Shown: positions 19,705 through 63,336, numbered from the stretch's first letter. The stretch is DNA of 64,000 nt from Escherichia phage vB_EcoP_WFI101126 (NC_070991.1); one strand, 5' to 3'. Translations and numbers: made by a program. Notes: generated by a model not told the origin, from the sequence alone.

Positions 19705-19730
19705 CGAAAAAAGCCACCCGGAGGTGGCTA
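19705..19730 (-). terminator. intrinsic terminator upstream of spanin-sigma genes
   Basis: AGCCACC-cgga-GGTGGCT hairpin, then T5 on - strand. Confidence 0.5.
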
Positions 19731-23100: not shown

Positions 23101-23125
23101 AAAAGCCGCCCGAAGGCAGCTTCTT
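23101..23125 (-). terminator. intrinsic terminator (conserved GCCGCCCGAAGGCAGC hairpin)
   Basis: Hairpin with T-run on - strand; near-identical copy at 53914. Confidence 0.4.
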
Positions 23126-40694: not shown

Positions 40695-42725
40695 TTAACC
40701 TCTATTCAATGAACATTTAGGAGAATTACAATAAACTTGATTCATAGAACCAAGCGTACAACTTTCAGCATCGCGCCACGGAATCTGCTTAAAACACTCT
40801 GAGCAGTATCCGAGGGTTGACCACATTGCTTTGGTGAAGTCAGTGCTTCGGTTTCCGTCGAAGCTGACAACAGTTTTGCGGAGAGCTGTTCGTGATTCAG
40901 GAAACACACCTGCTTTCTCAGCAGGTTCCTCCTTTTTTGGCTTAGTTGAGATTGCAAAAATACTGTTGCTACGTTTCTCAACATAAGCATCAACAACATC
41001 CTCCAGAGTGATGCCTGTCTGTTTCGCTGAGGAAGGTAATACAGTCATACGACCAATCATTTCTTCAGTTACACGTAAAGCAAATTCAGGACGACGGGAG
41101 TTTGTTGTATCTGTTGCTCTAATCCAGACATAACCATCTTTGATCGTAGCATTAGACACTTTCTTCTTTACATCTACAGCACAAACTTTACAGATATCTT
41201 CACCACGAAGACGACTAAGCTCTTCATCGAACTCATTCTCTGTTTTAACTTCACCGCAGATTTCACAAACACCAATAGGAGTTTCCTCCTCTTCTTCATC
41301 TTTAGGCTTAGTTAAACCTTCCAGACATTCAGGATGCCAGTAGCACTGATAAGCGAAGACTGCTTTAGGAGCATCTTTCCAATCAATGTGTTTATCGCAA
41401 CCACCACAATCTCCATGAGAGTGTGCTTCCCAGAATTTACGAGTGATAGTAACGCCATTATTGTTGACGAAACTATCATTCATATCAAAAGGGATATCAT
41501 CATCGAAGTCAGCAGTAGTAGACTCAGGCTCCTTTTTCTCCAGAGATGGGTCAACAAAACGACCTGCTGTGATCACTAAACGAACCATAGCATTAACTTC
41601 GGAGATGCAGGATACTGTCCCACGGTAAACAATCTTAGGGTCTTTCAGTGCGTCCTGATAAGCCTTAATGTCTACGTTATGAACATCACCTTCGATATAC
41701 TCTTGAGACTTCTCATCGTAGATATAACCAATCATCTTACCACGAGAAGGAACAGCACCAGCAGTTGCATAAGGAACGAACTCATGCGGAGTGATTTCCA
41801 CAGTCATATCGCGGCGAATGTCAATGTTTCGATCGCTTGCGATTTTGTTTTGACTTACCACTGCGTTTCTTCGACGAACGTCTGCTGCTGTCACTCCCGG
41901 CTTCGTGTCGTAAGGATTGCTTGTACTGCTTTTTGAGGAACTTTGATAGTTGCTTTGGCTGTAGTTGTTCGAGTAGTAACTGCCCCAACGATTGACTACC
42001 GTAAAAACCGGAAGCTCGTGGGCGACCTCTTCAACCAGAGTCATGCTGTTGTTTGACATATCAAAGATATACTCTGTACCAACTTTACATTCAAAATGCT
42101 CATCAATACGGTTCTTGTGAGATCTAGAACGCTTCAGAATCCACATCAACATGTCTTCTTCAGAAGCACCAAACCAATCTCTGTTACAGCGTGCTAGATG
42201 GAAAGGACGCTCTTCGTTACGGATGATATGAAGACGGTTATCAGAAGCATCATGCCAGATTAAGGTGAAAGCACCATCCAGCTTTTGAATAGTCTCTGCT
42301 GCACCAATAGTGTTAATAGAGTGGCAGATGTTCTCACTGTCTACCTCGAAGTTTTTGCTGTCAGGTAACAGGTCTTGGTCCATCAAGGTTCCGTTATGAA
42401 CCAGAGTGATGTTACCATGTTGGAAAGGATGGGCGTTCTTGGCGTTAACTGCACCTTTCGTTGCATGACGGCTGTGACCAACAATCCATGAAGGTGCTAC
42501 AGTGTAAGCTGTTTCACCAGTGGTGTGCTTCTTGTACTCATCTTGTAGGATGAATGCGAAAGAAGGAAGAGCTTCTTTATAAGTGAAGACTTCCTTAGTG
42601 CTTTTACGCTGACCAAAGATACCAGAGGAATGTTGTCCTCTGAATACTCCAGCATAAAAGAGTTGGTTAAATACGTCTAAATCAGTGCTTGACAGATTAC
42701 CGCCAGCTAATACGATGCCACAAAT
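40695..42725 (-). CDS. class-II (Ntn) glutamine amidotransferase with Cys-rich C-terminal extension; non-canonical start
   Basis: Frame open from 42728 to 40695; CGIV...RGQHSSGIFG...GHSRHATKG...NAHPF...HNG motifs all lie upstream of the first ATG/GTG/TTG (42386); ATT at 42725 is 7 nt after AGGTGGA and precedes the catalytic Cys codon. Confidence 0.7.
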   Translation of the reverse strand: MCGIVLAGGNLSSTDLDVFNQLFYAGVFRGQHSSGIFGQRKSTKEVFTYKEALPSFAFILQDEYKKHTTGETAYTVAPSWIVGHSRHATKGAVNAKNAHPFQHGNITLVHNGTLMDQDLLPDSKNFEVDSENICHSINTIGAAETIQKLDGAFTLIWHDASDNRLHIIRNEERPFHLARCNRDWFGASEEDMLMWILKRSRSHKNRIDEHFECKVGTEYIFDMSNNSMTLVEEVAHELPVFTVVNRWGSYYSNNYSQSNYQSSSKSSTSNPYDTKPGVTAADVRRRNAVVSQNKIASDRNIDIRRDMTVEITPHEFVPYATAGAVPSRGKMIGYIYDEKSQEYIEGDVHNVDIKAYQDALKDPKIVYRGTVSCISEVNAMVRLVITAGRFVDPSLEKKEPESTTADFDDDIPFDMNDSFVNNNGVTITRKFWEAHSHGDCGGCDKHIDWKDAPKAVFAYQCYWHPECLEGLTKPKDEEEEETPIGVCEICGEVKTENEFDEELSRLRGEDICKVCAVDVKKKVSNATIKDGYVWIRATDTTNSRRPEFALRVTEEMIGRMTVLPSSAKQTGITLEDVVDAYVEKRSNSIFAISTKPKKEEPAEKAGVFPESRTALRKTVVSFDGNRSTDFTKAMWSTLGYCSECFKQIPWRDAESCTLGSMNQVYCNSPKCSLNRG

Positions 42726-42804
42726 TTTCTAATCCACCTGAAGGGTAAACCCTTTCATCTAATTAACCTTTAAATTGTGCCCCTTTGTCAGAGGCACCCA
42801 TTGA

Positions 42805-43908
42805 TTACAGCGCTTGCTCTAACTGGTTTTCCAGATGGTCTGGAATGTACCCTGTGATATTACTATCACTGTGACCTGACTCACGTAGTAAGTCAAAAAT
42901 AGCACGGATACGTTGTTCTGGAGCGTGTCTTACTTGAGACAGGTCAGTTGTACGAAGCATAACCAGAATCTCTTGGTACAAGTTGTTAGCGTTCCCTCGG
43001 ACATACCCAAGGAATCCGTAGAAGTCTGACATATAACGTAAGTCAACAAGAACATCTCCGTTGGAGTTGGTTCTACGTAAACGAATACGACCAGACTGTT
43101 CTACTTCATGAGAACGGCAATACAAAACATCACGGGCCATACAATACCCTGAATGCAAATCAGATTCATCCAGATTGTAATCCAGAGGAAGGTAAGGAAG
43201 CATTGGGGCAAATCGTACAGTATTTAAGTGCTCAATAAACTGATCATTGCTCATATCTGCGTTATCTAAAGCCAGCTTCTTCAACATCAAGAAGCGGTTA
43301 ACCAGATTGAGAAGTTGACCACGTTTCCACTTAGGCTCACTGATACGGAACTCAATCGAACCGTATTGGGCAAGTGGCAGAAGGTTCAGGGATGTATACT
43401 TATCCCATGAACGCACCAGACGGTTGAAGAACTCTTCGTCGTCGTAGTTAAATGCGTCAGAGGCATTCATTACCTGTGCTTGTACCACTGCAAAAGCAGG
43501 GCAGAAGTTGCTACGGTAACGATGGTAGCCTGAACACTTGAACAACATCTTTTCATAGAAGGTCCAAGCGAGAATGGTTTTCTTGAGGATATTACTATCA
43601 GCATCCCTCATATCCATATGAACGTGAGTAGAGCAACGCCAAGTCCCCTCGGCGTGCGATTCAGCTACTGCTTCACTCAGGTTGTTGATAGCGTCTAACA
43701 ACTCCTGTCCGTTGTAAGGCCGTGAACATACCATTTCACAACCATTACGCAGGGAACCATCCTCTGTACAATCCCACATATCTGCTTCGATATGGTCGGA
43801 ACCTTCGAGTTCAAGTTCAATACCGACACCGCACTGAAGTGCAATTGAACTATGCGCCTCAGTTAAACGACCTTCTCGATACCCAAAAGTTTGCGCTACA
43901 GTTGTCAT
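42805..43908 (-). CDS. GCS2/YbdK-like carboxylate-amine ligase (glutamine synthetase fold amidoligase)
   Basis: GVGIELELEG near N-terminus and HVHMD motif as in YbdK (GIELE...HVHVG). Confidence 0.5.
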   Translation of the reverse strand: MTTVAQTFGYREGRLTEAHSSIALQCGVGIELELEGSDHIEADMWDCTEDGSLRNGCEMVCSRPYNGQELLDAINNLSEAVAESHAEGTWRCSTHVHMDMRDADSNILKKTILAWTFYEKMLFKCSGYHRYRSNFCPAFAVVQAQVMNASDAFNYDDEEFFNRLVRSWDKYTSLNLLPLAQYGSIEFRISEPKWKRGQLLNLVNRFLMLKKLALDNADMSNDQFIEHLNTVRFAPMLPYLPLDYNLDESDLHSGYCMARDVLYCRSHEVEQSGRIRLRRTNSNGDVLVDLRYMSDFYGFLGYVRGNANNLYQEILVMLRTTDLSQVRHAPEQRIRAIFDLLRESGHSDSNITGYIPDHLENQLEQAL

Positions 43909-44522
43909 AACGAATCCACCAACGTAATATTATAATTGCTAAGGTTTTCAGAAATGTGATGAAAGTGTTCCAGAAGTCTCATCGGTTGCTGACCGTAAGA
44001 GTCACGAGGTGCTTCCAGATCTACTTGCCCTACCAGTGCACCTTTATAATGCACCTTACCATCTGTAGGGTTGATATAAATATAACGAGTAACCAATCCT
44101 TCGAATTCAGGATTGAATAGACTGTAAACCATCTCCCCGGAGATAGCACGACCAACACCCGGAGCATTTCGAATCTTATTACCCATTAAGCCCTTTGCTC
44201 TCTGGCGAACAGGGTTAATATGAGTCCAGCTTACAGTGTTACCGTTATGGAACAGATAACCAACGTCAGGTGATTCAAGAATCAAGGTTGGGTCGAACAC
44301 TGGGATATTCATCGTAGTGTTTCGAAGATGCCCTTGCTCGTTCTTGTACCACTGCTCTACAACAAAGTACAGAGCCTGCTCTGCTTCGTGAGAGAAGTCA
44401 TCACTGCGGAAGTTACCGCTCTGCTCAACACCAATCACAAAACATGGAAGGTTGATATTACCTGCTCGTTTAGCAATCCATGTACCATTATAGTAATGAG
44501 AAAAATCAGCTACTAAGCTCAC
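43905..44522 (-). CDS. hypothetical protein (operon partner)
   Basis: 4-nt overlap with upstream gene suggests coupling. Confidence 0.4.
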   Translation of the reverse strand: MSLVADFSHYYNGTWIAKRAGNINLPCFVIGVEQSGNFRSDDFSHEAEQALYFVVEQWYKNEQGHLRNTTMNIPVFDPTLILESPDVGYLFHNGNTVSWTHINPVRQRAKGLMGNKIRNAPGVGRAISGEMVYSLFNPEFEGLVTRYIYINPTDGKVHYKGALVGQVDLEAPRDSYGQQPMRLLEHFHHISENLSNYNITLVDSL

Positions 44523-44531
44523 GATAACCTC

Positions 44532-45338
44532 TTATGCTACCTGAAGGAGTTTGATCTGCTGGTCCGCTTCTTTAACGTTGTTACCGTTAATGATTTCATG
44601 AAGCTTCTCAATCGGAAGGCGAGAGTGCAATGCCATCAGAGTGGACATGTCGCACTGCTGAACAACCTTGTCAACCTGATCGTAAACAAACTTACGGTTT
44701 TCACGATCGCTAATCCAGAAGTTAGACAGTGAACGGTATTCAATACCATAGTCTTTATAACGAATTGCAGATGCTTTACCGTAGAGTTCTTTACGGCGAG
44801 TATCTTTGTCCATAATTACTGCTGGGAGTGACAGGAAGTAGTCACACAGCACACCAAGCATCATCTGAGTTTGCAGAGTGATATCCAAAGCACCAACTAC
44901 GCCAAGATGTACGTGACCACCGGCAGTACGAAGCCCCTTGTTCTGAGAAGTTGGGGATGGGTTTTTCTGACCAGTGAAAGCGTTGAAGTCAGGAGTGCAT
45001 CCAAAGATGAACGCTGATTCATTAAAGGTCTTCATCTCTTCTTCGGTGAAGATGTGAGAGCTGACACCCGGAGCTGTTTCCATGTCCAGTTTGTTCAGGA
45101 CATTATTGGTAAGGTCAATACCACGTTGCATGTTATCGTTAAACGCTTCAAAACCACTCTGTGGGTCAATATCAAACTCAGCCAGTACATTGTCCTCTTG
45201 AAGACGAACATCCTTAGCCAGAGTGATCTTATCGTCCTTAGAACAACCTAATAGACCAGCTACAGAGGTGATGATACCGTTGCTAGTACGAACGAACATT
45301 TCAGGGTCAGAGCCGATGAGGAATTTGCGCTTAGTCAT
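44532..45338 (-). CDS. hypothetical protein, possibly second GS-fold ligase-like
   Basis: LIGSDPEMFV and GGHVHLGV loosely echo the GIELE / HVHVG motifs; weak. Confidence 0.35.
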   Translation of the reverse strand: MTKRKFLIGSDPEMFVRTSNGIITSVAGLLGCSKDDKITLAKDVRLQEDNVLAEFDIDPQSGFEAFNDNMQRGIDLTNNVLNKLDMETAPGVSSHIFTEEEMKTFNESAFIFGCTPDFNAFTGQKNPSPTSQNKGLRTAGGHVHLGVVGALDITLQTQMMLGVLCDYFLSLPAVIMDKDTRRKELYGKASAIRYKDYGIEYRSLSNFWISDRENRKFVYDQVDKVVQQCDMSTLMALHSRLPIEKLHEIINGNNVKEADQQIKLLQVA

Positions 45339-46312: not shown

Positions 46313-47506
46313 TTATTTTCCTAAAAATAATCCGCTCATAACACCATCCCACTCAGAGGACGGAATCACTGAATACTCCGAACTTTGGTCCAGAGTTCCA
46401 CTACTAAATCGCTGAACAATGTTGTAGATGTTGAACAGGTCTTTAGCCTCGGCACGAATGCCGTAGATTAACCTGTTAGCTGTTCTCTCATTTTTAGACA
46501 CGCGACGGGTAAAGTTAACCAAAAGATTATCACCTTTAAGTATCTCTGACCCATCTTTTACTAGATCGGGGTGCATCACTGGCAAGAACATTGAGTTGTT
46601 AACTCGCAATTCTGCTGTTTCGTCGTTCTCATAATGAATCCACTTAAAGTCTTCATCACGAAAGTGACCGCATCCATCTCTGTATGACTGTTGACGCCAA
46701 GGCACTTGAAATGCTTCAGCGTATTTATCAGCCATGCCAACCGTAAATAGTGACGCTGGGAAAATACAAGCATCCCAATCGTTACCAACCAGAGTTGCTT
46801 TCGTTTCTCCCAAGAGGTTGGTGTAAGTGCTAACCATTCGTGAATAAACGTAAGCCTGAAGAATTGTCCAGCCTTCAACCAACCATTTATGAAGGAAGGT
46901 TTCAACTTGACTCTCTTCATCTTCACAATAGAAGGTTCGATCTAACATCAAATAGAACAGACAACGATCAGCAGGAACATTCTCAGTTGCTACCCCCATA
47001 AAACCTTTCTCGTGCCAGCGTAAACAGGAGGGACGATCTTTGTCCACAAATGCTTCCATAGCTTCCAGTACAGCACGAGGTGTGGTTCGATGTTCAGGGT
47101 TTTTGTCGTTCCAACGTTCGATGTTATTTTTAAGCTCGCCTTCGTAATCAATAGCACCCCAACCTAAAGCTTCGGATACATGCTCTGCGTCACGCCAACG
47201 TCTAAAACCTAACATCTTCATGTGAGTTCCGGAGTTCCAGATATGCTTGATTTTACACATATCCATCTCTCGGCTTAACAGGAACTCTTCCCCATCAGCA
47301 CTACGAACGTTAGCTTCTTCATGCCACACTCGAACGTGCATATTCCACCCATGAGTTGCCTCATACATGTTAGGGTCGAAGTATTCATCTTCGTCATCAT
47401 CTTTATCAACGCCACCGTTATAGTTGCGAAGCTGAAGGAACCCATAACAAGGAGGGTTGACCGTTAAAACATTACCTTCAGTATCTTCTAATGTTACTGG
47501 AAACAT
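46313..47506 (-). CDS. hypothetical protein (operon partner, 397 aa)
   Basis: Long ORF, no recognised motif. Confidence 0.4.
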   Translation of the reverse strand: MFPVTLEDTEGNVLTVNPPCYGFLQLRNYNGGVDKDDDEDEYFDPNMYEATHGWNMHVRVWHEEANVRSADGEEFLLSREMDMCKIKHIWNSGTHMKMLGFRRWRDAEHVSEALGWGAIDYEGELKNNIERWNDKNPEHRTTPRAVLEAMEAFVDKDRPSCLRWHEKGFMGVATENVPADRCLFYLMLDRTFYCEDEESQVETFLHKWLVEGWTILQAYVYSRMVSTYTNLLGETKATLVGNDWDACIFPASLFTVGMADKYAEAFQVPWRQQSYRDGCGHFRDEDFKWIHYENDETAELRVNNSMFLPVMHPDLVKDGSEILKGDNLLVNFTRRVSKNERTANRLIYGIRAEAKDLFNIYNIVQRFSSGTLDQSSEYSVIPSSEWDGVMSGLFLGK

Positions 47507-47517
47507 TATACCAACCT

Positions 47518-47880
47518 CTATTGGTTTTTAATCAACTCAATCGACTTACGGATATAAAGGATATCTCGGAAATTTCGATAGTTGTTCATAAATTGATGCT
47601 TCTGGAAAGTAGCTTCTTCCAGAGCTTTCTTTGCTTCTGCGTAGTTTTTACGGGCAAGATGTACAACCCGCTCGGGTAACACATTTGCATGACGGATGAC
47701 ATACTTGTGAGCTTTCATGTTGCTTTGCTCACGAGCAATCTTACCTTTAGCAACTTTGATACCATTTGCAATCCAAGCAAGTTCTTGCTCAAGCTCATCG
47801 TTGGACATTCCACCGAGATTTGATGCAACCTTGTTCAGAGTTTCAATATTAACGTTGCCCTTAATGGGACGTGTATTCAT
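47518..47880 (-). CDS. hypothetical protein
   Basis: ORF track. Confidence 0.35.
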   Translation of the reverse strand: MNTRPIKGNVNIETLNKVASNLGGMSNDELEQELAWIANGIKVAKGKIAREQSNMKAHKYVIRHANVLPERVVHLARKNYAEAKKALEEATFQKHQFMNNYRNFRDILYIRKSIELIKNQ

Positions 47881-47882
47881 AC

Positions 47883-48029
47883 TTACTCCTGTTGTTTACA
47901 CTCGTCAATAACCCACTGATAAGTGGATTGCCCAGAAAAGAAACACTGAATAAATCCAGATGTTCTCTGCGTTACCAGTGCTAGTGCACAAATCACTACC
48001 GCTGCTGCTAGCAGTTTTAAATCTAATTT
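47883..48029 (-). CDS. small secreted/membrane protein
   Basis: MSKLDLKLLAAAVVICALALV signal-like N-terminus. Confidence 0.25.
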   Translation of the reverse strand, partial: KLDLKLLAAAVVICALALVTQRTSGFIQCFFSGQSTYQWVIDECKQQE

Positions 48030-48130
48030 AGACATATTTCCTCTCATTGAATTTAAAAAAGGACTCTCCGAAAAGAGCCAAGCTTTAAATCCAAAAAAGA
48101 TATTACCCAATATCTGTGGATAACCTGCTC

Positions 48131-48262
48131 TTAAAATATCTATCCGACGGATGTTCGAGGATTGTTCCTCTCCCTAGCATCGGCCCCATACGGGAAATAT
48201 ATTAAGATTAGGTTAGTTGAGTCAGAATAACTCACATAGCCCTCCGAAGAAGGCTATAGGCG
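48131..48262. repeat. conserved intergenic element, copy A
   Basis: Shares GGATGTTCGAG, CTCTCCCTAGC and TCACATAGCCCTC blocks with 54516-54640. Confidence 0.6.
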
Positions 48263-48271
48263 TTACTACAA

Positions 48272-48487
48272 CTAAAAATCACTTGATTTTACAAAATCAT
48301 CACTAAGGATTTCGTCAATCTCTTTGCTAGTCAAATCTTTCCTGAACCAGCAACAAGGAACATCCACCCATTGACCAGAGTTGTTTTCTACAGAGCATCT
48401 ATTGCCTGTCTTACTCTTGCACTTATAGGTTTTCCCTTTGTCTAGACGATAGTGTATTCTGTAAACGATCGACACAAGTGCTATCAT
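48272..48487 (-). CDS. Cys-rich hypothetical protein
   Basis: ORF track. Confidence 0.3.
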   Translation of the reverse strand: MIALVSIVYRIHYRLDKGKTYKCKSKTGNRCSVENNSGQWVDVPCCWFRKDLTSKEIDEILSDDFVKSSDF

Positions 48488-48744
48488 TACTCTATCCTAA
48501 CTGAAGGGCAGTATTTCTCTTTCTTGCTGCGATACATCACAACAATCCAGTTTGAATCACGACGCTCTTTCTTACGTCGTTTCTTTTCAGCACGAGTTTC
48601 ATATGTGCTAGTTCGGTGGTCACGGTATATTCCACGAAGTTCATGAAATGCCCAACTACCACCAAACACTACACCAGCCAAAGCAGCCAAAGGTAAGGCA
48701 CCAAGAGCAGGGGCAGTGAACCATGTCCACCAATTGAATGACAA
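48487..48744 (-). CDS. membrane protein with basic C-terminal tail
   Basis: TM helix then RAEKKRRKKERRD; overlaps 48669..48950. Confidence 0.3.
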   Translation of the reverse strand: MSFNWWTWFTAPALGALPLAALAGVVFGGSWAFHELRGIYRDHRTSTYETRAEKKRRKKERRDSNWIVVMYRSKKEKYCPSVRIE

Positions 48745-48950
48745 AAATTCTCATGTCCAAGGAGAGAGCCACCAATCATGGATAGTGCAGCGTATACAAT
48801 CCCTAACAGCAGCGTCAGTGCAATGAAGTGCATCACTGTACGCCAGAAGTATTCGCAAAAGTTAGTCATATTATCCCAATGAGGGTTGGGTAAACCTGAC
48901 ATGGTTTTGTTTAACTTATGCAACCATCCGTTCTTGTTAATCTTGATCAT
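48669..48950 (-). CDS. membrane protein
   Basis: TM helix; possibly one gene with 48487..48744 separated by a frameshift. Confidence 0.3.
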   Translation of the reverse strand: MIKINKNGWLHKLNKTMSGLPNPHWDNMTNFCEYFWRTVMHFIALTLLLGIVYAALSMIGGSLLGHENFCHSIGGHGSLPLLLVPYLWLLWLV

Positions 48951-49183
48951 TACTCACCTTTCTTGGCACGATCTTTGGCAGTTTTACCAGTGCGGATGCG
49001 ATGGGAAACGTTAACCAGAGTACCACCATCAACTACGGTAACGCTCTTGTTTTTAGCCAGATCAAACACAGTCTTCTCTGTGCCACCCAAGCGAATTTGC
49101 TTAGGCTCACTGAAGGTTTGGGTTGATTTAGATTGGAACTGGAACGGTTGACGGATTGCATCGATTGCGCTTACTTTAGACAT
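48950..49183 (-). CDS. hypothetical protein
   Basis: ORF track. Confidence 0.35.
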   Translation of the reverse strand: MSKVSAIDAIRQPFQFQSKSTQTFSEPKQIRLGGTEKTVFDLAKNKSVTVVDGGTLVNVSHRIRTGKTAKDRAKKGE

Positions 49184-49257
49184 AGGGGAAATTCCTTAAA
49201 AAGTTATGGCTGCGTAGAGGGAATTCCCTACGCAAATTGGGACGCCCACAGAGAGGC

Positions 49258-49275
49258 GTCATAGTACTAAAAGGA
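49258..49275. repeat. 18-bp conserved motif GCGTCATAGTACTAAAAG (copy 1)
   Basis: Identical 18-mer at 56743-56760; contains 8-bp palindrome TAGTACTA; followed by hairpin 49208-49229. Confidence 0.6.
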
Positions 49276-49417
49276 GGAGAGAAGAGGGATTATTTAGCTA
49301 CCTTTTTCTGTCCATTTACGAACCAGATAATTGAACCGTCAGGCTGTCGTTGACCGAAGCCTTTTTGGTTAATCATATCGTCATAAGAATATGCTTTACG
49401 TCTCATTTGTTTTCCTA

Positions 49418-49630
49418 TTAACAGGCGTAGTTACGTAGGTATACATGCCGATCTCTCAGCACCTCACCAAGAAAAGATTTGTAATCTTCTGTTATGCCAG
49501 AATAAAACTTCTCTTTAGCTTCTTCTTCGGACACTTTCCACAACTTAGAAAGTTGGTTGAACAAGATTTCCTCTGAGGAAAACAGTAGATAGGCATTCTG
49601 TATGAGTATGTCTTTCTCTTCTTGAGTCAT
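49418..49630 (-). CDS. hypothetical protein
   Basis: ORF track. Confidence 0.3.
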   Translation of the reverse strand: MTQEEKDILIQNAYLLFSSEEILFNQLSKLWKVSEEEAKEKFYSGITEDYKSFLGEVLRDRHVYLRNYAC

Positions 49631-49639
49631 AGACCACCC

Positions 49640-49885
49640 TTACATTAGAGTTAAGATGATCTCTGCTTTGGCAAACTTCTCACCAACTTCAAGAGTGTCA
49701 GAAACAGGACGAGGTTCGCCTGTGCCTAAATTAACTGCTCTGCGATATCCACCAGATAGAGGCATCATCAAATAAATGACCTGACTGTCATCATCTTTTA
49801 AAGTAAAGATGTCAGCGGTTGACAGATCTTTAACAAAGAGTTTCTTTTCTTCTTTGTTGTGAACCTTGATATGTATCGTGCTCAT
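49640..49885 (-). CDS. small beta-rich protein, multicopy family member
   Basis: L..DL...D.F...........NLGTG...P pattern shared with family. Confidence 0.4.
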   Translation of the reverse strand: MSTIHIKVHNKEEKKLFVKDLSTADIFTLKDDDSQVIYLMMPLSGGYRRAVNLGTGEPRPVSDTLEVGEKFAKAEIILTLM

Positions 49886-49887
49886 AC

Positions 49888-50139
49888 CTACTCCTGAACC
49901 ACAGACATACGAATCATCTCTACCTGATCATCAAGACTTTTAACAGATAGTACACCTGTAAAAAGGTTTACCACAGGAACCCAACCACTAGCTATACGGA
50001 TGTTACCAGAAGCATTTTCAACCCTCATATAATATTGAGGAGAAGCACTTCCGTTCTGAACTACGAAGGGGTTTCCGGGAATGATTGTTTCCAATCGTAC
50101 CGTATTATCCTTTTTCTTAGGGATGATTTTCATTAGCAA
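49888..50139 (-). CDS. small beta-rich protein, multicopy family member
   Basis: Family pattern. Confidence 0.4.
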   Translation of the reverse strand: MLMKIIPKKKDNTVRLETIIPGNPFVVQNGSASPQYYMRVENASGNIRIASGWVPVVNLFTGVLSVKSLDDQVEMIRMSVVQE

Positions 50140-50208
50140 TCACTCACTAAAAGTTCTGCCGACACAGGAATAACTTGGCACCAGCTAGACGGTGCTGTTA
50201 CGTTACCA

Positions 50209-50379
50209 TCAGATAGACGGAGAGAGTACTCGATCAGAGTTAACGGTTACATTAGGACTTTCAGATACAGTCCCTTTGACATAGAGAGTAGCACTCTCGG
50301 GGAATTTAAATACTGCTCCGCTGGGAAGGGTGTTGAGATCAACCTTGGTCACTTCTTCTTTCTTGTGAGTAATCTTCAT
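50209..50379 (-). CDS. small beta-rich protein, multicopy family member (56 aa)
   Basis: KVDLNTLPSGAVFKF; ATG overlaps stop of upstream gene (ATGA); below track cutoff. Confidence 0.35.
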   Translation of the reverse strand: MKITHKKEEVTKVDLNTLPSGAVFKFPESATLYVKGTVSESPNVTVNSDRVLSPSI

Positions 50380-50630
50380 TTAGAATCCTTAATAACGTTA
50401 GCTTCAACCTTAACAGGAATAACAGAGATGCCCTCAACGGGGCCACTTAAGTGTCCATCTTCCAGTCTGACACACACGACTCGATCTCGTGCAACTTCTA
50501 CCCAATTAGTAGATGCCGCAGTACAGACCATATGAATTGGACCGTTCTCTTCCAGCCGGAAGGTAGCGCCCTTCTTCAGAGTGTGGAGTTTCACAGTCTT
50601 GATAGTTTTGTTCAATTCGTTAACTTTCAT
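50376..50630 (-). CDS. small beta-rich protein, multicopy family member
   Basis: VKLHTLKKGATFRL... family pattern. Confidence 0.4.
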   Translation of the reverse strand: MKVNELNKTIKTVKLHTLKKGATFRLEENGPIHMVCTAASTNWVEVARDRVVCVRLEDGHLSGPVEGISVIPVKVEANVIKDSK

Positions 50631-50638
50631 ATTGATTC

Positions 50639-50950
50639 CTATTTAAGTTTCAGGCTAATATTAAGGTGCATACATGCCCTGTTCTGTACAGCAGCATAGC
50701 TTCTACCGAGCATGTCAGCCATTCTCTGAATAGGCATGAACCCAGCATTACGGATAAGGAACTGATCTTCTTCTTCAGACCACTTAACTCGGATTGAAGC
50801 TCTTGATATTCCGAACTTAGTGCAAGCTGTGTTAACAGCATTCTCCGTTACATTCATAATCTGAGCAACTTCTTTAACCGAGTACTCTTTGATTAATCTC
50901 CGAAGATTTTCAATCTGCATCGGAGTCCATATAGTTCTTCGCGCTTTCAT
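50639..50950 (-). CDS. DNA-binding protein with two GcrA-like HTH motifs
   Basis: Two repeats of W.......L..L........A......NAV (WTPMQIENLRRL...; WSEEEDQFLIRN...). Confidence 0.45.
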   Translation of the reverse strand: MKARRTIWTPMQIENLRRLIKEYSVKEVAQIMNVTENAVNTACTKFGISRASIRVKWSEEEDQFLIRNAGFMPIQRMADMLGRSYAAVQNRACMHLNISLKLK

Positions 50951-51430
50951 ATACCCTCCAATTAAAAAGAAGAAAACTATCAGGGGAGTACACTAGCTCT
51001 GGGCCACGCTGTAGACATCGGCCTACCTTCCACAGCTAATCAGCTAATGTACTCTCCTAATAGTTTATGAATAGGGGGAGGGGACGAATCCTCCCATATC
51101 CTATTAATTAATATTGCATGTAAGATCTAACAATCGGTTGCCTTTGTAGGAATAAGCGTTATGCTAATCCAGCACTAAACTCCCGCCCCCTTAGTGGGCT
51201 GGGTTATTAAAGGGTAACGCCCTTATGGGCTAGTTACATGAATGTTAGTTTGATAGGAGATCTGAAGTCCTATCTCAAAGGACTCTCGTAAGAATCCTTC
51301 ACGATATTACTTATTCAACTCTCGTCGGCTATCTCTCCAAGCCAACCAAGTGTAGATTTTCAACTCTTCAAAATCTTCTGGAGAGAATAGATATTCTTTG
51401 AAGGTGTCACTAAACCACTCTAAAAATTCT

Positions 51431-51631
51431 TCAGTCATAAATACCTCTTGCTTTATAGGTGGTACAGATTAATGTTGCATGTCTTTGGTTATACAGTTCG
51501 AAGTAACGAGGCTTGCTCCAGTCTCTGTCTCTGGTAAAGGATTGAAGAATGAAGTGTCTGTCACATCCAAGCCATTCAGAAACATCCATCGCTAGACGTA
51601 TAGGAGAACCTCTGAATTCCCTCCGCTCCAT
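51431..51631 (-). CDS. hypothetical protein
   Basis: ORF track. Confidence 0.3.
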   Translation of the reverse strand: MERREFRGSPIRLAMDVSEWLGCDRHFILQSFTRDRDWSKPRYFELYNQRHATLICTTYKARGIYD

Positions 51632-51642
51632 TTAAACCTCTC

Positions 51643-51816
51643 TTAGCAAGACTGGTCACATGGCTGATCACCACATGTTTTACAAATAACTGGTGAGTAA
51701 CTACAGGCAGGATACACTGACACACCATCCCATGTCTCACACCCACAGTCAGGACATGTGCCGTTAGATTCCATGTCATCATCGTCGTCTATTTCACCGC
51801 CACCAAAACAACTCAT
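51643..51816 (-). CDS. small Cys-rich (zinc-binding?) protein
   Basis: AAGGAG SD 6 nt before ATG; 12 Cys in 57 aa; preferred over overlapping 51576..51782. Confidence 0.4.
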   Translation of the reverse strand: MSCFGGGEIDDDDDMESNGTCPDCGCETWDGVSVYPACSYSPVICKTCGDQPCDQSC

Positions 51817-51825
51817 ACAGGCTCC

Positions 51826-52047
51826 TTAGTAAACTAAACCTATAGCCTTTGCATCGGGCTGAGGGACTACCTTTGCGCTAGGGCGATAGCCATCCACTGA
51901 ACCATTCCAAAGGTTGACACAGGTAATATACCCATCGTCTATGATGTCTGTTTTAATCCAGAAGTGTTTATCATGACCAAAGATACTTCCGTTTGGCAGC
52001 GTGGACAGTTCAGCGGTCTTAAGTGACTGCTTAGAGTCTAGTTTCAT
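51826..52047 (-). CDS. small beta-rich protein, multicopy family member
   Basis: SLKTAELSTLPNGSIF...VNLWNG...VVPQPD. Confidence 0.4.
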   Translation of the reverse strand: MKLDSKQSLKTAELSTLPNGSIFGHDKHFWIKTDIIDDGYITCVNLWNGSVDGYRPSAKVVPQPDAKAIGLVY

Positions 52048-52054
52048 AATAACC

Positions 52055-52303
52055 TCAATTATCGTAGCATGTATTCCAATACATGTAGTTAACGTACGTT
52101 CTCGGTTTGATTCCGTACATGATGAAGTGAGTCTTCTTGATCCTTTCCTTCAGCGTGTAATAAAGGCCATCACTGAAGTTACCAATCTTTACTTGGAAGC
52201 GTAAGGAGCGAGCATCCATTCGAAGCATCCACAGCATCTGATTATGACTCTGATTACTCATTGTATCGAGAAGCTTCTTTGTATTCCAATAATGAGCTGT
52301 CAT
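52055..52303 (-). CDS. hypothetical protein
   Basis: ORF track, internal Met start. Confidence 0.3.
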   Translation of the reverse strand: MTAHYWNTKKLLDTMSNQSHNQMLWMLRMDARSLRFQVKIGNFSDGLYYTLKERIKKTHFIMYGIKPRTYVNYMYWNTCYDN

Positions 52304-52304
52304 A

Positions 52305-52586
52305 TCACCACTCCTTACCGGTTGTAGTAGTAGAACCACCACACCACTGCGCATCTGACAAGGTTTTAGTTTCCTCATCTACTGCTGCACCGTTCAGGCA
52401 TGAGATACCACTGTAACGCATATCAATTTCACCAGAAGGAATCTTCTCACCTTTGTGCCAGCGAGAAACACAAACACCTTCCACTGATACTGCACACCAT
52501 CCATCAGGACGGCTCTGTACGCAGCCTGTAAGGGCTATACAGACAAGGAAGATACAGATTAAGGATATTACACCACCCCAACTCAT
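52305..52586 (-). CDS. lipoprotein
   Basis: Signal peptide with LTGC lipobox (MSWGGVISLICIFLVCIALTGC). Confidence 0.55.
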   Translation of the reverse strand: MSWGGVISLICIFLVCIALTGCVQSRPDGWCAVSVEGVCVSRWHKGEKIPSGEIDMRYSGISCLNGAAVDEETKTLSDAQWCGGSTTTTGKEW

Positions 52587-52605
52587 AACTACCTCCTATT
52601 TGATG

Positions 52606-52681
52606 TGGTGCGCCCTACAGGACTCGAACCTGTAACCAATAGCTTAGAAGGCTACTGCTCTATCCATTGAGCTAAGAGCGC
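52606..52681 (-). tRNA. tRNA-Arg (anticodon UCU), CCA encoded
   Basis: 76 nt; 7-bp acceptor stem with one G-U, D-arm GCTC/GAGC, anticodon loop CTTCTAA, T-arm ACAGG-TTCGAGT-CCTGT, 3' ACCA. Confidence 0.85.
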
Positions 52682-52689
52682 GGAATTAT

Positions 52690-52854
52690 TTAGATCATAT
52701 CTCGCTTAGTGATATGACCACATGTTTTACATCGAAGTATGTAACGAGTTCCGGTACTTTCCAGTTTACCAAACTCATTGTATGTATTTAAACTAACCGC
52801 TTTGATTGTCTCCCACTCATGGAGATGGAAGAGATATTTAAACCACTTGAACAT
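52690..52854 (-). CDS. small hypothetical protein (CxxC)
   Basis: Compact ORF adjacent to tRNA. Confidence 0.25.
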   Translation of the reverse strand: MFKWFKYLFHLHEWETIKAVSLNTYNEFGKLESTGTRYILRCKTCGHITKRDMI

Positions 52855-52856
52855 AA

Positions 52857-53090
52857 TTATACCACCTCAACGAGAGATGTTTTCCACCCAAACAGAGGTC
52901 CATTATCATTAAGATAAACAGCCCCTCCAGTCTCGAATGGAGTTCCATAAGGGAGTGCCCAAGCATACCCACGAATTTCTGGCTTATGAGTAAACCCATA
53001 CACTTCGCCGTTGCTATCAGTTGCTAAATATCTTATAGAGTTACCTATTTTAATAACTTCACCAAAATATTTAACCTCTTTAGTCTTCAT
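52857..53090 (-). CDS. small protein (paralog pair with 53098..53349)
   Basis: RYLATDSNGEVYGF vs RYIAIDKMGYVWAW. Confidence 0.35.
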   Translation of the reverse strand: MKTKEVKYFGEVIKIGNSIRYLATDSNGEVYGFTHKPEIRGYAWALPYGTPFETGGAVYLNDNGPLFGWKTSLVEVV

Positions 53091-53097
53091 ACCAACC

Positions 53098-53349
53098 TCA
53101 AGCACAAGCAGGGAGTGTGATGATTTTATACTGACCTTCAAACTCTCCAAATAAACCTAAGAATGTAGGACTGTAAGTACCAGTACAAACAAACTCATCA
53201 AACAGTTCGTTATAGCTAGGCTTAATCTTCCAAGCCCATACATAACCCATCTTGTCAATTGCAATGTAACGAGTGTTCAGAGGAACAGTCATCATCACAC
53301 CGTCAACTTCGATCACTTTAGTGATTGGTGCAGCTTGGAAGTTTTTCAT
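53098..53349 (-). CDS. small protein (paralog pair)
   Basis: See partner. Confidence 0.35.
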   Translation of the reverse strand: MKNFQAAPITKVIEVDGVMMTVPLNTRYIAIDKMGYVWAWKIKPSYNELFDEFVCTGTYSPTFLGLFGEFEGQYKIITLPACA

Positions 53350-53522
53350 ACTTTACCTTTGATAAAAATATCATTACCACAGACACAGCATGAACGAACA
53401 ACAGTAGCGCCACGCTGAACGATACGAACCTCTTCCTTAACCAGATTAACACGAGCACCACAGCAAGGAGAGTTAACATAAGAGTAACCAGCTTGCGTAT
53501 TCTTGATTGTTTGCTTAGACAT
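53346..53522 (-). CDS. small zinc-ribbon protein
   Basis: CC...n...CC.C pattern; ATG overlaps upstream stop. Confidence 0.3.
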   Translation of the reverse strand: MSKQTIKNTQAGYSYVNSPCCGARVNLVKEEVRIVQRGATVVRSCCVCGNDIFIKGKV

Positions 53523-53523
53523 T

Positions 53524-53871
53524 TTATTCGAGATCTCTCAGTTGTTCAGCCATTTGTTCGCACTTGTTGATGCAGAACGCTTCTGTTCTTGGAACCCCGT
53601 TAGGGTTGAACCGTGTCTTATCACCTGCATGGGCACAATCAAATCCGATTGTATCTAAACCACCCATCTCTTCAAGGGTATCTTGCCACGTGACACCACC
53701 ATGAACGTTCACATAACAAACAACCTTTTCCTCTCCATTATATCCGGTGAAGTTTTTATGTTTCAAACTATCTGGTAACTCTACATACCCACATAAGTGG
53801 GAATTGTTCATGTGCATAATCACAGCACGAAGGCCCGATTTAGTTTCCCAACTTTTAACTATGCGTCTCAT
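53524..53871 (-). CDS. hypothetical protein
   Basis: ORF track; conserved-looking HGGVTW...IGFDCAHAGD. Confidence 0.35.
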   Translation of the reverse strand: MRRIVKSWETKSGLRAVIMHMNNSHLCGYVELPDSLKHKNFTGYNGEEKVVCYVNVHGGVTWQDTLEEMGGLDTIGFDCAHAGDKTRFNPNGVPRTEAFCINKCEQMAEQLRDLE

Positions 53872-53913
53872 ATAAGCACCTCTTGTTAGTTTAAGTAAGA
53901 GTTGTCCCTTAAT

Positions 53914-53943
53914 TAAAACAACAAAGGCCGCCCGAAGGCAGCC
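53914..53943 (-). terminator. intrinsic terminator (conserved GCCGCCCGAAGGCAGC hairpin)
   Basis: Near-identical to hairpin at 23103; T-rich tract on - strand. Confidence 0.45.
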
Positions 53944-53948
53944 TCTCT

Positions 53949-54158
53949 TTATTGACTAACACCACGAATCAGATGATTCTGTAGCATTTCGTCTTCTGCA
54001 TTATATAGGAATGCAAACATCAACTCCTTAGCCACATCTCTTGAGCAATTAAGACACTTAGAGATTTGCGTTAGTTGCATGTTGCGTTCAGTGTGTTCCA
54101 TCAAGGCAATGCGAATGATCTCTCGCATACCTATCACATGGGTTGTCTTAACCGGCAT
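53949..54158 (-). CDS. hypothetical protein (possible HTH)
   Basis: ORF track, internal Met start. Confidence 0.3.
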   Translation of the reverse strand: MPVKTTHVIGMREIIRIALMEHTERNMQLTQISKCLNCSRDVAKELMFAFLYNAEDEMLQNHLIRGVSQ

Positions 54159-54288
54159 AGGTCCAATTTCCTTGCTTGTTACGGATGGCTGACATTGCAT
54201 GAAGCCAGAAGCCTTCCAGTTTCAGAGCACCATTAGCTACTACATCCATACGTTCAGGGCGGTTCATACGTTTGGTTGATACTTTCAT
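54148..54288 (-). CDS. small hypothetical protein
   Basis: 46 aa ORF; stop overlaps next start. Confidence 0.2.
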   Translation of the reverse strand: MKVSTKRMNRPERMDVVANGALKLEGFWLHAMSAIRNKQGNWTYAG

Positions 54289-54515
54289 ACCTATCTCTCT
54301 TTGTTAGTGGAGGCATTATTGCCAGTTGATATAAGGGATAGCCCTAGTCAGTAGGCTAATCCTGACCGCGTACTCATTGCCGACCTTCTCTGCCTAAGAG
54401 TTCAGGTTCTAGAGCTATCTCTTATTCCAACTGGTGAAGACTCCCTACCCCTAGGAAGTCTCCTGAATCCCAAACCAATACGTACCCCTACATATCGGAA
54501 AGTCTTTCGAAAATT

Positions 54516-54640
54516 AACAGGTTTTAGTCTAACACCGGATGTTCGAGCAAGCTCTCCCTAGCGGTGTGGCATATGCCTGAATTAATAAGTTAATGAGGAA
54601 CACCCTCACATAGCCCTCTGATAAACACAAGAGCTATAAG
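54516..54640. repeat. conserved intergenic element, copy B
   Basis: See copy A; hairpin GAGCaaGCTC here versus GAGGattgttCCTC in copy A. Confidence 0.6.
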
Positions 54641-54646
54641 TCGGTG

Positions 54647-54958
54647 TTACTTAACTGCTTCCATCATCTTACGAACGTTAGCCACACCTTTCTGAATCAA
54701 AGGCAGGAACTCATCACCCAAACTAGAAGATAGAAGACTCAAACTTCCCGTCTTAATGCCACGACATGCTGACTCTACTTCTTCCGGCAACAATGTCATA
54801 TTAAACCACGGAGATTTAATCTCTACTGTAAATCCGGGGTTGTACCGGCTCTCGCTATGATTAAACTCCAGATAAGTGACACCGGAGCAGTGTTTCATTT
54901 GAGCACGAATTGTTACAGTGGGCTTACACATCACAAAAGAAGAAACAGACATAATCAC
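54647..54958 (-). CDS. hypothetical protein
   Basis: ORF track. Confidence 0.35.
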   Translation of the reverse strand: MIMSVSSFVMCKPTVTIRAQMKHCSGVTYLEFNHSESRYNPGFTVEIKSPWFNMTLLPEEVESACRGIKTGSLSLLSSSLGDEFLPLIQKGVANVRKMMEAVK

Positions 54959-54963
54959 TTACC

Positions 54964-55182
54964 TTACTTTTGAGTCACATGTAGATCAGGGCGAGGTGTA
55001 ACAGTAGTGCCGCCCTTAAAAAGACCAACATAACCAGTACGAAGATTGGCTGCTTTATGTGAACCATTATTTGCTACCTCTTCAAGCAGCAACCAGAACC
55101 GGCTATCATAAAAGAAAACCGACCCACTTTCTAGATCACATATTTTTGAAAACTTAAGAGGTTTACCTTCATTGATTTCCAT
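54964..55182 (-). CDS. small beta-rich protein, multicopy family member
   Basis: PLKFSKICDLESGSVFF...AANLRTG. Confidence 0.4.
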   Translation of the reverse strand: MEINEGKPLKFSKICDLESGSVFFYDSRFWLLLEEVANNGSHKAANLRTGYVGLFKGGTTVTPRPDLHVTQK

Positions 55183-55437
55183 TTACTTACCCTTGTTGGT
55201 AATCACTGCATCAGGAATAAGGACTACAGGAATATCTGAAGCGAGCTTCATAACCTGATTGATGTTTAAATTTAGCACCACACAACCGGCACTAGGCTTA
55301 GCTTCGGTTACATGTGGAGTGAAGAGTTGCACAACCATGTAATAACTTATACCGGTGTTTTTAACTTGGAATACATCACCCAGTTTCAGATCACTCAACT
55401 TAAGTTCTGGATTCTTCCACTCAAGATCAATCTTCAT
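55183..55437 (-). CDS. small beta-rich protein, multicopy family member
   Basis: LKLSDLKLGDVFQV...VVLNLNINQV...VVLIPD. Confidence 0.4.
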   Translation of the reverse strand: MKIDLEWKNPELKLSDLKLGDVFQVKNTGISYYMVVQLFTPHVTEAKPSAGCVVLNLNINQVMKLASDIPVVLIPDAVITNKGK

Positions 55438-55633
55438 CTTTAACCTCTACGTTGGTTATGTGGAGATCATTACGAACTTGGCAGACTTCATCACGCTTAA
55501 TAGGGATGAGTTTTCCAGTGACCACATCAACGCAGTTCACATAATTGTCTGCATATAAAGAATCGGTTCGAATATAAAGGAACCCTTTAGACTCAAAGAG
55601 AACCCCCGGCTTCATGTTATTTAAGCGAAGCAT
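55427..55633 (-). CDS. small beta-rich protein, multicopy family member
   Basis: MLRLNNMKPGVLFESKGFLYIRTD. Confidence 0.35.
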   Translation of the reverse strand: MLRLNNMKPGVLFESKGFLYIRTDSLYADNYVNCVDVVTGKLIPIKRDEVCQVRNDLHITNVEVKDED

Positions 55634-55652
55634 TGTATGGTTAGGTTTAATA

Positions 55653-55949
55653 TTAACCTTCACTGTTAATCTCCTGCTGCTTAGCAATAGCCACTCGCAA
55701 ATCTTCATTAGCACGAGTGAGGCGCAATACTTCATGATTGAGGCTCTGAAGACGCTTGTTTCTGTCTTCAACTTGCATAATAAGATCGTTAAGTGTTACT
55801 TTAACTTTCTCATTATACATCTCATCCACTCGGACTAGAGATTTATACATTCTTTCCCAGCTTGCTGCTTTGTTTCTGAGAACAATAAATCCTATAACGC
55901 TGATAGTTAAACAGAGTACAAAAAGGAATTTATATACTTCTAAAGTCAT
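55653..55949 (-). CDS. membrane-anchored coiled-coil protein
   Basis: N-terminal TM helix then heptad-rich region. Confidence 0.35.
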   Translation of the reverse strand: MTLEVYKFLFVLCLTISVIGFIVLRNKAASWERMYKSLVRVDEMYNEKVKVTLNDLIMQVEDRNKRLQSLNHEVLRLTRANEDLRVAIAKQQEINSEG

Positions 55950-56149
55950 ATCATTTTACCCTTTATCAGAGATTAAAAGTAATATTATTTAAGTAAGTTA
56001 TATTTAGTAAACTTATTTTCTAAGAAATTTTCAAAGGGTCTATATACAGAGCATTACCCATAGTCCCAGAATACTACCATCTTTTTCAATAAATTTACTA
56101 AGTGGTTGGTTTATAAAGGAATTTAGTTTGTCAAATCTGGCACTAGTGA

Positions 56150-56677: not shown

Positions 56678-56699
56678 AAAAAGCCGCCCAAAGGCGGCT
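56678..56699 (-). terminator. intrinsic terminator
   Basis: AGCCGCC-caaa-GGCGGCT perfect hairpin plus TTTT on - strand. Confidence 0.5.
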
Positions 56700-60858: not shown

Positions 60859-60886
60859 ATATTACTATACAGGAAAACCCTGTCAA
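60859..60886 (-). promoter_or_regulatory. sigma70-type early promoter P3 (TTGACA-16-TAATAT)
   Basis: Perfect -35; spacer resembles P4. Confidence 0.45.
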
Positions 60887-61084
60887 TACCCTTTTTTCAA
60901 ATTATTTTATATCTTACTGTTTTATAAAGGAATTTATTTTAGGGAGGATAGGAACTACAAAGAAATCAGGGGATAGAGGAACGGGCGCGCGTGATACATC
61001 ATAGGAAACGGCTTGTAAAGCAATAATAAGCGGCCTATAACGCATCACAACGAGCTAAAAGGGAGTAAGGCATACAATCACCCT

Positions 61085-63308: not shown

Positions 63309-63336
63309 ACTATATAATAAAGGAAAAAGCTGTCAA
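63309..63336 (-). promoter_or_regulatory. sigma70-type early promoter P4 (TTGACA-16-TATAGT)
   Basis: Perfect -35, 16-nt spacer, 5/6 -10, about 40 nt upstream of ATG 63263. Confidence 0.55.

Follow-up and report, generated by a model that had tools for sequence, protein, structure and literature searches.

Genomic setting of two related intergenic segments

The analyzed DNA, a 64,000-nucleotide stretch of Escherichia phage vB_EcoP_WFI101126 (NC_070991.1, hereafter the window), contains two related intergenic elements, referred to as copy A and copy B (coordinates in Table 1). The window belongs to a phiEco32-like podophage of the genus Kuravirus (Gordonclarkvirinae); in megablast comparisons, the region 47000-56000 was 97% identical to Escherichia phage Ptacy1532 and ~92% identical to phiEco32. 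All plausible genes within 45-58 kb are carried by the minus strand, and the location between co-directional early genes that a first-pass annotation of this DNA had given for both elements was confirmed. The homologues of phi32_91 and phi32_90 are separated by a 236-nt gap that holds copy A, and those of phi32_113 and phi32_112 by a 358-nt gap that holds copy B. Both copies start immediately downstream of the preceding gene's stop codon, with TAA/TGA variation within a conserved 'GTAAC', and both fall within the early cluster that is transcribed by the host polymerase in phiEco32 and 7-11 (PMC8948821). The gene content of the A-B interval is highly variable between phages, with lengths from 2.9 kb (ManiMatter) to 6.4 kb (here).

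The two segments are copies of one multi-helix RNA motif

The first-pass annotation had described a set of ordered sequence blocks shared by the two segments and, between the first two blocks, a stem preserved by paired substitutions. All blocks were present in the same order in both segments, and the difference between the plus-strand hairpins, GAGG-attgtt-CCTC in A versus GAGC-aa-GCTC in B, was verified. Exact matches to the 14-mer CTCACATAGCCCTC and to the 11-mer GGATGTTCGAG are confined, within the 64 kb, to these two places, one per copy. With B as query, nhmmer matched A with E values of ~1e-3 in the window and 1e-7 in phage SU7. Model R1, a covariance model whose training set was limited to 19 A-type sequences, also recovered B (Table 1), and a scan of the window with this model returned exactly the two expected copies and no third one. 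From these comparisons we conclude that A and B are paralogous copies of one conserved, multi-helix RNA motif of ~120 nt.

Three details of the earlier description had to be revised. Genes and RNA both belong to the minus strand, so that the blocks quoted previously are the antisense of the RNA. The inner stem of B had been given as 4 bp with a 2-nt loop and actually reads GAG-CUUG-CUC (GAGA-CUUG-UCUC in SU7-like phages). Finally, the limits had been drawn too short: the A module reaches 48055 and the B module 54436. The proposed hairpin does covary, but it is one of five covarying helices rather than a single stem-loop; likewise, the proposal of a structured RNA is supported by 41 distinct copies, with the qualification that only part of the structure, on the reversed strand, had been seen.

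Read 5' to 3' on the minus strand, the shared RNA consists of helix H1, the abutting helix H2, an AU-rich unpaired linker (10-24 nt across copies), the short helix H3, and a core formed by an outer stem, an internal loop, and an inner hairpin. Across the aligned copies, H1 has the form UAUAGCC...GGCUAUG around a loop of variable length, and H2 shows compensatory variants (GAGC/GGCUC in SU7, GAGGG/CCUC in B, GGUAUAC/GUAUAUC in the Flavobacterium homologue L049 described below). H3 is a 3-bp stem with an RUAU loop, which reads GGC-AUAU-GCC in B and GCC-RUAU-GGC in 7-11 and in copy B of SU7. The core generally comprises an outer stem of 6-7 bp, a 7x7 internal loop, and an inner helix of 3-4 bp closed by a variable loop; in SU7-like B copies, the UCACCG/CGGUGA outer stem accompanies the GAGA-type inner hairpin given above. 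The internal loop (5' strand CUAGGG(A/C), 3' strand (G/A)AACAUC, 7 + 7 nt) is invariant. Many copies repeat the sequence AACAUC at their 5' end. In B, the 5' strand and loop of H2 (GGGUGUUC, 54594-54608; GGAUGUUC in SU7-like phages) are complementary to the invariant 3' loop strand GAACAUCC (54538-54545), possibly as an alternative pairing or a loop-loop contact; this complementarity was not seen in A.

Table 1. Features of the two RNA copies and of their 3' flanks (all on the minus strand, RNA letters given 5' to 3').
Feature	Coordinates	Strand	Remarks
Copy A, full covariance-model match (H1, H2, linker, H3, core)	48140..48265	-	model R1, 154 bits
A helix H1, UAUAGCCUUC-UUCG-GAGGGCUAUG	48235..48258	-	9 modelled pairs, 5 with double-sided changes; loop length variable
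A helix H2, UGAGU-UAUUCUG-ACUCA, abutting H1	48218..48234	-	compensatory variants
A linker, AU-rich, single-stranded	48195..48217	-	complementary to 3' flank (possible long-range helix P6)
A helix H3, CCC-GUAU-GGG	48185..48194	-	CG/GC pair types alternate
A core: outer stem CCGAUG/CGUCGG, loop CUAGGGA / GAACAUC, inner hairpin GAGG-AACAAU-CCUC	48144..48183	-	4/6 outer pairs with double-sided changes
Predicted double DnaA box, TTAAGAGCA-gg-TTATCCACA	48115..48134	-	perfect 9-mer; DNA-level site
A weak hairpin, GAUAUU-GGGU-AAUAUC, then U6	48093..48114	-	counterpart of B H5; missing in 7-11-like phages
Intrinsic terminator, GGCUCUU-UUCG-GGAGAGUC, then U6	48055..48079	-	conserved; ~10 nt before ribosome-binding site of phi32_90 homologue
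Copy B, full covariance-model match	54529..54649	-	model R1 (A-type copies only), 50 bits, E = 4e-8
B core: outer stem ACACCG/CGGUGU, loop CUAGGGA / GAACAUC, inner hairpin GAG-CUUG-CUC	54532..54567	-	SU7-like counterparts
B helix H5, CCGAUAUG-UAGGGGUA-CGUAUUGG	54475..54498	-	8 pairs, 97.7% paired, invariant loop
B helix H6, GGAGACUUCCU-AGGGGU-AGGGAGUCUUC	54436..54462	-	11 pairs, 4 with double-sided changes, invariant loop
Next terminator after B	53923..53946	-	~590 nt from B; next gene start ~50 nt beyond

Covariation and strand assignment

Pairing was counted in the 41 distinct sequences using an alignment fitted to the covariance model, a procedure that favours the modelled structure. Standard pairs occupied 99.3% of the pair cells, compared with 86% after column shuffles and 32-46% with slid partners, and double-sided changes were observed in 15 of the 27 pairs. 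RNAalifold applied to a plain MAFFT alignment recovered H1, H3, and the outer and inner core stems with 9 covarying pairs; together with the L049 copy, this result argues in the same direction. G-U pairs are frequent: 35 of 40 sequences have U-G as the basal pair of H1, and 23 of 41 have such a pair in the outer stem. On the opposite strand every G-U pair would become an A-C mismatch, which assigns the structure to the transcribed minus strand; a plus-strand RNA was rejected for the same reason. A closing stem of B suggested by a single-sequence fold (GUAACACCG/CGGUGUUAG) was dropped, its 5' partner being mismatched in SU7; the local outer stem was preferred because it covaries (ACACCG/CGGUGU versus UCACCG/CGGUGA). 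Taken together, the comparative evidence strongly supports the motif as a structured RNA family without an Rfam match.

The loop nucleotides that flank the inner helix also covary, with A..G in 24, C..A in 15, A..A in 2, and C..G in none of the 41 sequences (Fisher p = 2e-9 for sequences that are distinct, not independent). Separate switches of these nucleotides occurred in the Kuravirus A, the Kuravirus/SU7 B, and the 7-11 lineages. Judged by pair isostericity, these combinations are compatible with a sheared pair of the non-Watson-Crick type that stacks on the inner helix and adjoins tandem G-A pairs, and the 7x7 internal loop is probably zipped by sheared purine pairs. A kink-turn was considered, and its GGGA non-bulged strand and GAA loop fit Kt-7, but position 1b is C instead of G and the covariation did not match; this assignment was not adopted.

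Distribution and ancestry of the motif

Copies A and B are both conserved in ~100 phage records. Diverged versions of A, at 88% in SU7-like phages and at 72-74% in the group of Salmonella phage 7-11 and its relatives, were also identified. The first-pass annotation had named further copies with supporting covariation as one test of its proposal, and such copies were found in Kuravirus-, SU7-, and 7-11-like phages, in metagenomes, and in a phage-like contig from Flavobacterium. In core-loop pattern scans of IMG/VR and metagenomes, all true copies came from Kuravirus-, SU7-, and 7-11-like contigs, with the exception of the one in the Flavobacterium contig L049, which derives from a metagenome-assembled genome. 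Pattern matches in L017, L018/L022/L035/L040/L048, L021, L024, L030, and L047 were discarded as chance matches lacking the helices.

With model R1, B copies scored 50-65 bits and the full-length homologue in L049 scored 60 bits. All helices of the L049 element differ in sequence yet are retained, and its internal loop is identical. The element lies between co-directional small open reading frames (ORFs) in a phage-like early region, and among the PHROG matches of the contig is an Srd-like 'decoy of host sigma70'. Protein-based searches for further Flavobacterium relatives yielded a single one, the IMG/VR contig L052, which has a weak 23-bit match at the syntenic position with similar helices and a reduced internal loop. 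L052 encodes a glutamine amidotransferase, a COOH-NH2 ligase, an amidoligase, and an ATP-grasp protein, as do the window and 7-11, and this cluster is located downstream of the RNA in the same orientation as in the window and 7-11. In a comparison of L052:7859-16000 and L049 with window positions 36221-45323, the amidoligase-type cluster and a 568-aa protein were common to both sides.

The shared cluster in the same orientation indicates that the Flavobacterium contigs and the phiEco32/7-11-like phages are distant relatives with a genome module that spans host phyla, and that the A-type position is ancestral. The 7-11-like phages have the A-type copy only, and R1 detected no second copy in bases 58729-89916 of 7-11. 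By this comparison, the A-type copy is the ancestral one and B a later duplicate specific to the Gordonclarkvirinae.

Locus-specific flanks of the shared RNA

The regions that follow A and B differ from each other (Table 1). The terminator 65 nt after A is found in Kuravirus-, SU7-, and 7-11-like phages with the stem kept and differing loops, and it is annotated as such in the 7-11 and SU7 records. Linker and 3' flank of A can form the pairings AACCU/AGGUU and UCUUAA/UUAAGA, the flank being the segment that holds the DnaA boxes; the counterparts are UCUUU/AAAGA in 7-11 and UUCUUUU/AAAAGAA in L032. A long-range helix P6 enclosing H3 and the core is therefore plausible from these complementarities, which represent few independent events.

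Downstream of B, helices H5 and H6 were paired in 97% of the cells of a MAFFT alignment versus 35-54% with slid partners, and their invariant loops both contain UAGGGGUA. A third H1-like hairpin (UAGCCUA-CUGAC-UAGGGCUA, 54339-54358) was noted further downstream within a ~60-nt insertion/deletion at ~54330-54400; this segment is present in some Kuraviruses and is replaced by a shorter one in NJ01, ManiMatter, and SU7-like phages.

A host-type DnaA site adjoins copy A

When the A module was compared with 5,426 Escherichia coli genomes by blastn, a single chromosomal place was matched in 5423/5426 of them, just upstream of nrdD. The flank carrying the phage DnaA boxes is ~90% identical over ~40 nt to this site, and the double DnaA box of E. 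coli nrdD, tTTAAGAACAggTTATCCACAg, shares its spacing, orientation, and flanking bases with the phage sequence tTTAAGAGCAggTTATCCACAg. The nrdD site, with the exact E. coli sequence, is listed as a 'double DnaA box' that was bound by DnaA in vivo in chromatin immunoprecipitation sequencing (PMC11317965). Relative to transcription, the nrdD site is inverted compared with the phage site, and the similarity thus resides at the DNA level. Double DnaA boxes of the same kind are those of E. coli oriC R4, datA, and DARS2. The phage sequence TTAAGAGCA-gg-TTATCCACA agrees with the definition of such sites, namely the consensus 9-mer TTATCCACA preceded, at a distance of 2-3 bp, by a weaker box of equal orientation.

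The site is conserved as far as the 7-11-like phages and is predicted to bind DnaA. No second perfect DnaA box was found near A, and neither B nor L049 contains one; the site is thus an add-on of locus A that lies outside the shared RNA. An assignment to NrdR boxes was rejected, as the matched E. coli segment is distinct from the nrdDG NrdR site (oligonucleotide sequences, PMC12176259). A replication origin was rejected, given only one DnaA site and a GC skew that merely tracks gene orientation.

Comparison with known RNA classes and coding sequences

Screening of the 64-kb window with Rfam 15 (4227 covariance models) left only a tRNA-Arg above threshold, and a permissive Rfam scan of 47800-55000 returned nothing at either element up to E = 5. 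ARAGORN and the Rfam tRNA model identified tRNA-Arg(TCT) as the sole gene of this kind, and the elements are not tRNA, transfer-messenger RNA, or tRNA-like. This tRNA-Arg(TCT) gene (52606-52681, minus strand) is located between copies A and B in the same early transcription unit. No prior description of the element was found in the papers searched on phiEco32, 7-11, SU10, and SU7, or on phiEco32 in connection with RNA.

A test for small ORFs revealed no conserved reading frame, and the gaps are crossed only by short unconserved frames. The copies differ by indels of 2, 3, 4, 7, and 9 nt and by substitutions that are paired across helices; as the indels are not multiples of three and the substitutions are paired, the element is not coding. 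In public records, element A is covered, on one strand or the other, by small ORFs annotated as 'hypothetical protein' (L002:1030-1125, L011:12003-12143, and several others). The covariation pattern suggests that the small ORFs over these elements in GenBank records are mis-annotations. A sigma-70 promoter candidate within A (CTGACT-18-TATATT) was rejected, since it is not conserved in B, 7-11, or L049.

A possible role in terminator read-through

Early transcription in 7-11 must be antiterminated by a strategy 'that remains to be defined' (PMC8948821). We tentatively favour, well short of confidence, a role of the element as a cis-acting RNA that controls terminator read-through, either by put-like processive antitermination or by attenuation control. 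The RNA would act in cis on its own transcript, and either RNA polymerase during elongation or its local folding path would be modified; transcription would then pass the downstream intrinsic terminators (48079-48055 after A, 53946-53923 after B), so that the element would gate the delayed portion of the early cluster. At locus A, the DnaA box between RNA and terminator may add DnaA-dependent control. The reading is favoured because the ancestral copy always precedes a strong terminator, without room for a promoter before the next genes, and B likewise precedes such a terminator at a greater distance. That the field describes 7-11 as antiterminating by an undefined route, and that put offers a precedent of two related cis-acting copies in early transcripts, point the same way, as does the gene order in common with L052. 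In addition, a partner that is itself universally conserved, such as RNA polymerase, is suggested by loop nucleotides that do not vary between host phyla.

The closest known system is that of phage HK022, in which two sequence-related copies, putL and putR, are located in early host-polymerase transcripts upstream of terminators and act in cis without a phage protein; the put RNA is ~70 nt long and forms two stem-loops in a V shape (PMC9378689). The likeness lies in two early-transcript copies upstream of terminators that need read-through, here at 65 nt (A) and ~590 nt (B). In contrast to put as described, the present motif has ~120 nt, five helices, and a 7x7 loop, not every terminator is preceded by a copy, and an action on polymerase is proposed here from position. 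Neither a two-stem architecture nor a sequence like that of put was recognized, although the motif was not aligned directly with put sequences. The nut sites of phage lambda (boxA/boxB with N) are similar as two copies of an RNA signal in early operons before terminators that gate delayed-early genes. They differ in that the aligned copies contain no boxA (CGCUCUUA)/boxB arrangement and no boxB-type 15-nt hairpin, and in that no homologue of N was identified, although no search aimed at one was made; the only boxA-like string, GCUCUUU, is inside the terminator stem, and the present motif is far larger and more structured.

Several observations weigh against the read-through role. The proposed mechanism is deduced from position, and B is ~590 nt away from the nearest terminator. 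A similar terminator at 56699-56679 has no upstream copy in the window, and no obvious intrinsic terminator follows the Flavobacterium copies. The search for promoters around 56.1 and 53.75 kb gave no confident assignment. The architecture, with five helices and ~120 nt, is unlike the two stem-loops and ~70 nt of put, and the reduced loop of L052 means that the 'invariant' loop is not universal. No element was found in bases 30000-76631 of Cronobacter phage GAP52, a relative of 7-11, and its lack in the part scanned indicates that the element is not indispensable for this genome architecture.

Alternative explanations were weighed against the same features. The element may instead serve RNA processing or stability, a doubtful but still appreciable possibility: the AU-rich linker would be cleaved by RNase E or a similar enzyme, punctuating the early polycistronic mRNA, with H1-H2 capping the 3' end of the upstream message and H3 and the core protecting the 5' end of the downstream one; at A, a small RNA of the 3'-untranslated-region type that ends at the terminator would be released. 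The start at the upstream stop codon between co-directional early genes agrees with this role, as does the 10-24-nt AU-rich unpaired linker between stable hairpins in every homologue, including L049 and L052, and the segment from H3 to the terminator of A would constitute an RNA of ~130 nt with terminator and U-tail, the usual architecture of small RNAs. The early RNase III sites of phage T7 are a precedent for repeated structured intercistronic sites: similar hairpins, each with an internal loop, separate co-directional early genes on a polycistronic RNA made by the host polymerase. T7, however, has about ten such sites of about two helical turns each, formed by ~20-bp irregular hairpins, whereas here two copies with a core of 10-11 bp, which is short for RNase III, carry three extra helices and a loop that is invariant across host phyla. 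Sites for host RNases need no 14-nucleotide invariant loop shared by enterobacterial and Flavobacterium phages, only two copies exist among ~60 early genes, and B without a terminator shows that the small-RNA version is not a shared function. A sensor leader, riboswitch-like or a protein-binding operator, in which loop and junction would bind a ligand or protein and switch a downstream platform (the terminator after A, the hairpins before gene 112 after B), appears unlikely. Invariant unpaired nucleotides framed by covarying helices are a pattern typical of aptamers and shared with riboswitch leaders; a terminator and then a gene follow A, and the neighbourhood is partly conserved, with an A-type copy upstream of the amidoligase/ATP-grasp/glutamine amidotransferase cluster in enterobacterial and Flavobacterium phages. 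Moreover, AAGAGC in the flank could pair with UCUUAA of the linker or with the 5' strand of the terminator (GCUCUU) as a possible antiterminator, and duplicated segments in B and in L049 compete for one partner. These alternative pairings are short, however (4-6 bp), there is no overlap between motif and terminator, a clear expression platform is missing from B and from the distant copies, and no Rfam riboswitch was matched; several kilobases of small genes separate RNA and cluster in the Flavobacterium contigs, and the genes after B are unrelated.

An element that acts as DNA, either as a replication origin or protein-binding module or as a recombination cassette shuffling the hypervariable early genes between A and B, is highly improbable. 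It would account for the host-type double DnaA box conserved at A to the 7-11-like phages, for H3 as a DNA palindrome (CCATATGG type), and for the widely varying gene content of the A-B interval. Yet the DnaA site is single rather than clustered and is lacking in B and L049, the GC skew gives no origin signal, and the abundant G-U pairs and strand-specific covariation indicate RNA; protein-binding palindromes would conserve their sequence instead of covarying. The least probable explanation is that the element is a ribozyme of a class not yet described and cuts the early polycistronic transcript by self-cleavage. A strictly conserved internal loop between variable helices, an intergenic site in phages, and a cross-phylum distribution are traits typical of small ribozymes; against this stand the reduced loop of L052, the lack of recognizable catalytic-core features, and the failure to match, even weakly, the hammerhead, twister, twister-sister, pistol, hatchet, or hepatitis delta virus models.

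The proposed control of read-through has a more far-reaching version, which we consider improbable: a new class of processive antiterminators that modify RNA polymerase, unrelated to put, extending from enterobacterial to Flavobacterium phages, and wired to DnaA at locus A. In this DnaA-wired form, DnaA occupancy would decide on read-through into the delayed early cluster (the amidoligase genes; gp79 in phiEco32). If true, it would explain how tens of kilobases are transcribed from few early promoters in phiEco32/7-11-like phages. The phiEco32-like phages serve as models of phage control of host RNA polymerase through their own sigma factor and gp79. For the passage of early transcription through internal terminators, stated to be unknown (PMC8948821), the element represents a concrete and mutable candidate. 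Independent of the mechanism, an invariant loop in phages of two bacterial phyla, within an RNA family that has no Rfam match, implies a conserved partner or chemistry, and a site of the type bound by host DnaA next to A suggests a link of phage early expression or replication to the host initiator.

Other repeats in the window

A terminator cassette is repeated across the genome as near-identical GC-rich hairpins of the AAAAGCCGCCCGAAGGCGGCT type (19709-19729, 23101-23121, 53923-53943, and 56679-56699), all four of which read as intrinsic terminators on the minus strand. Intergenic AT-rich repeats belonging to families D1 and D13, three related units of 48-75 nt, are located at 56082-56129, 60867-60941, and 63317-63391; they hold TTGACA and AAATTCCTTTATAAA and are probably early promoter regions, without a confident assignment of -35 and -10 elements. 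In the late/structural region of the plus strand, a 55-nt unit is present as a perfect tandem duplication at 10486-10595.

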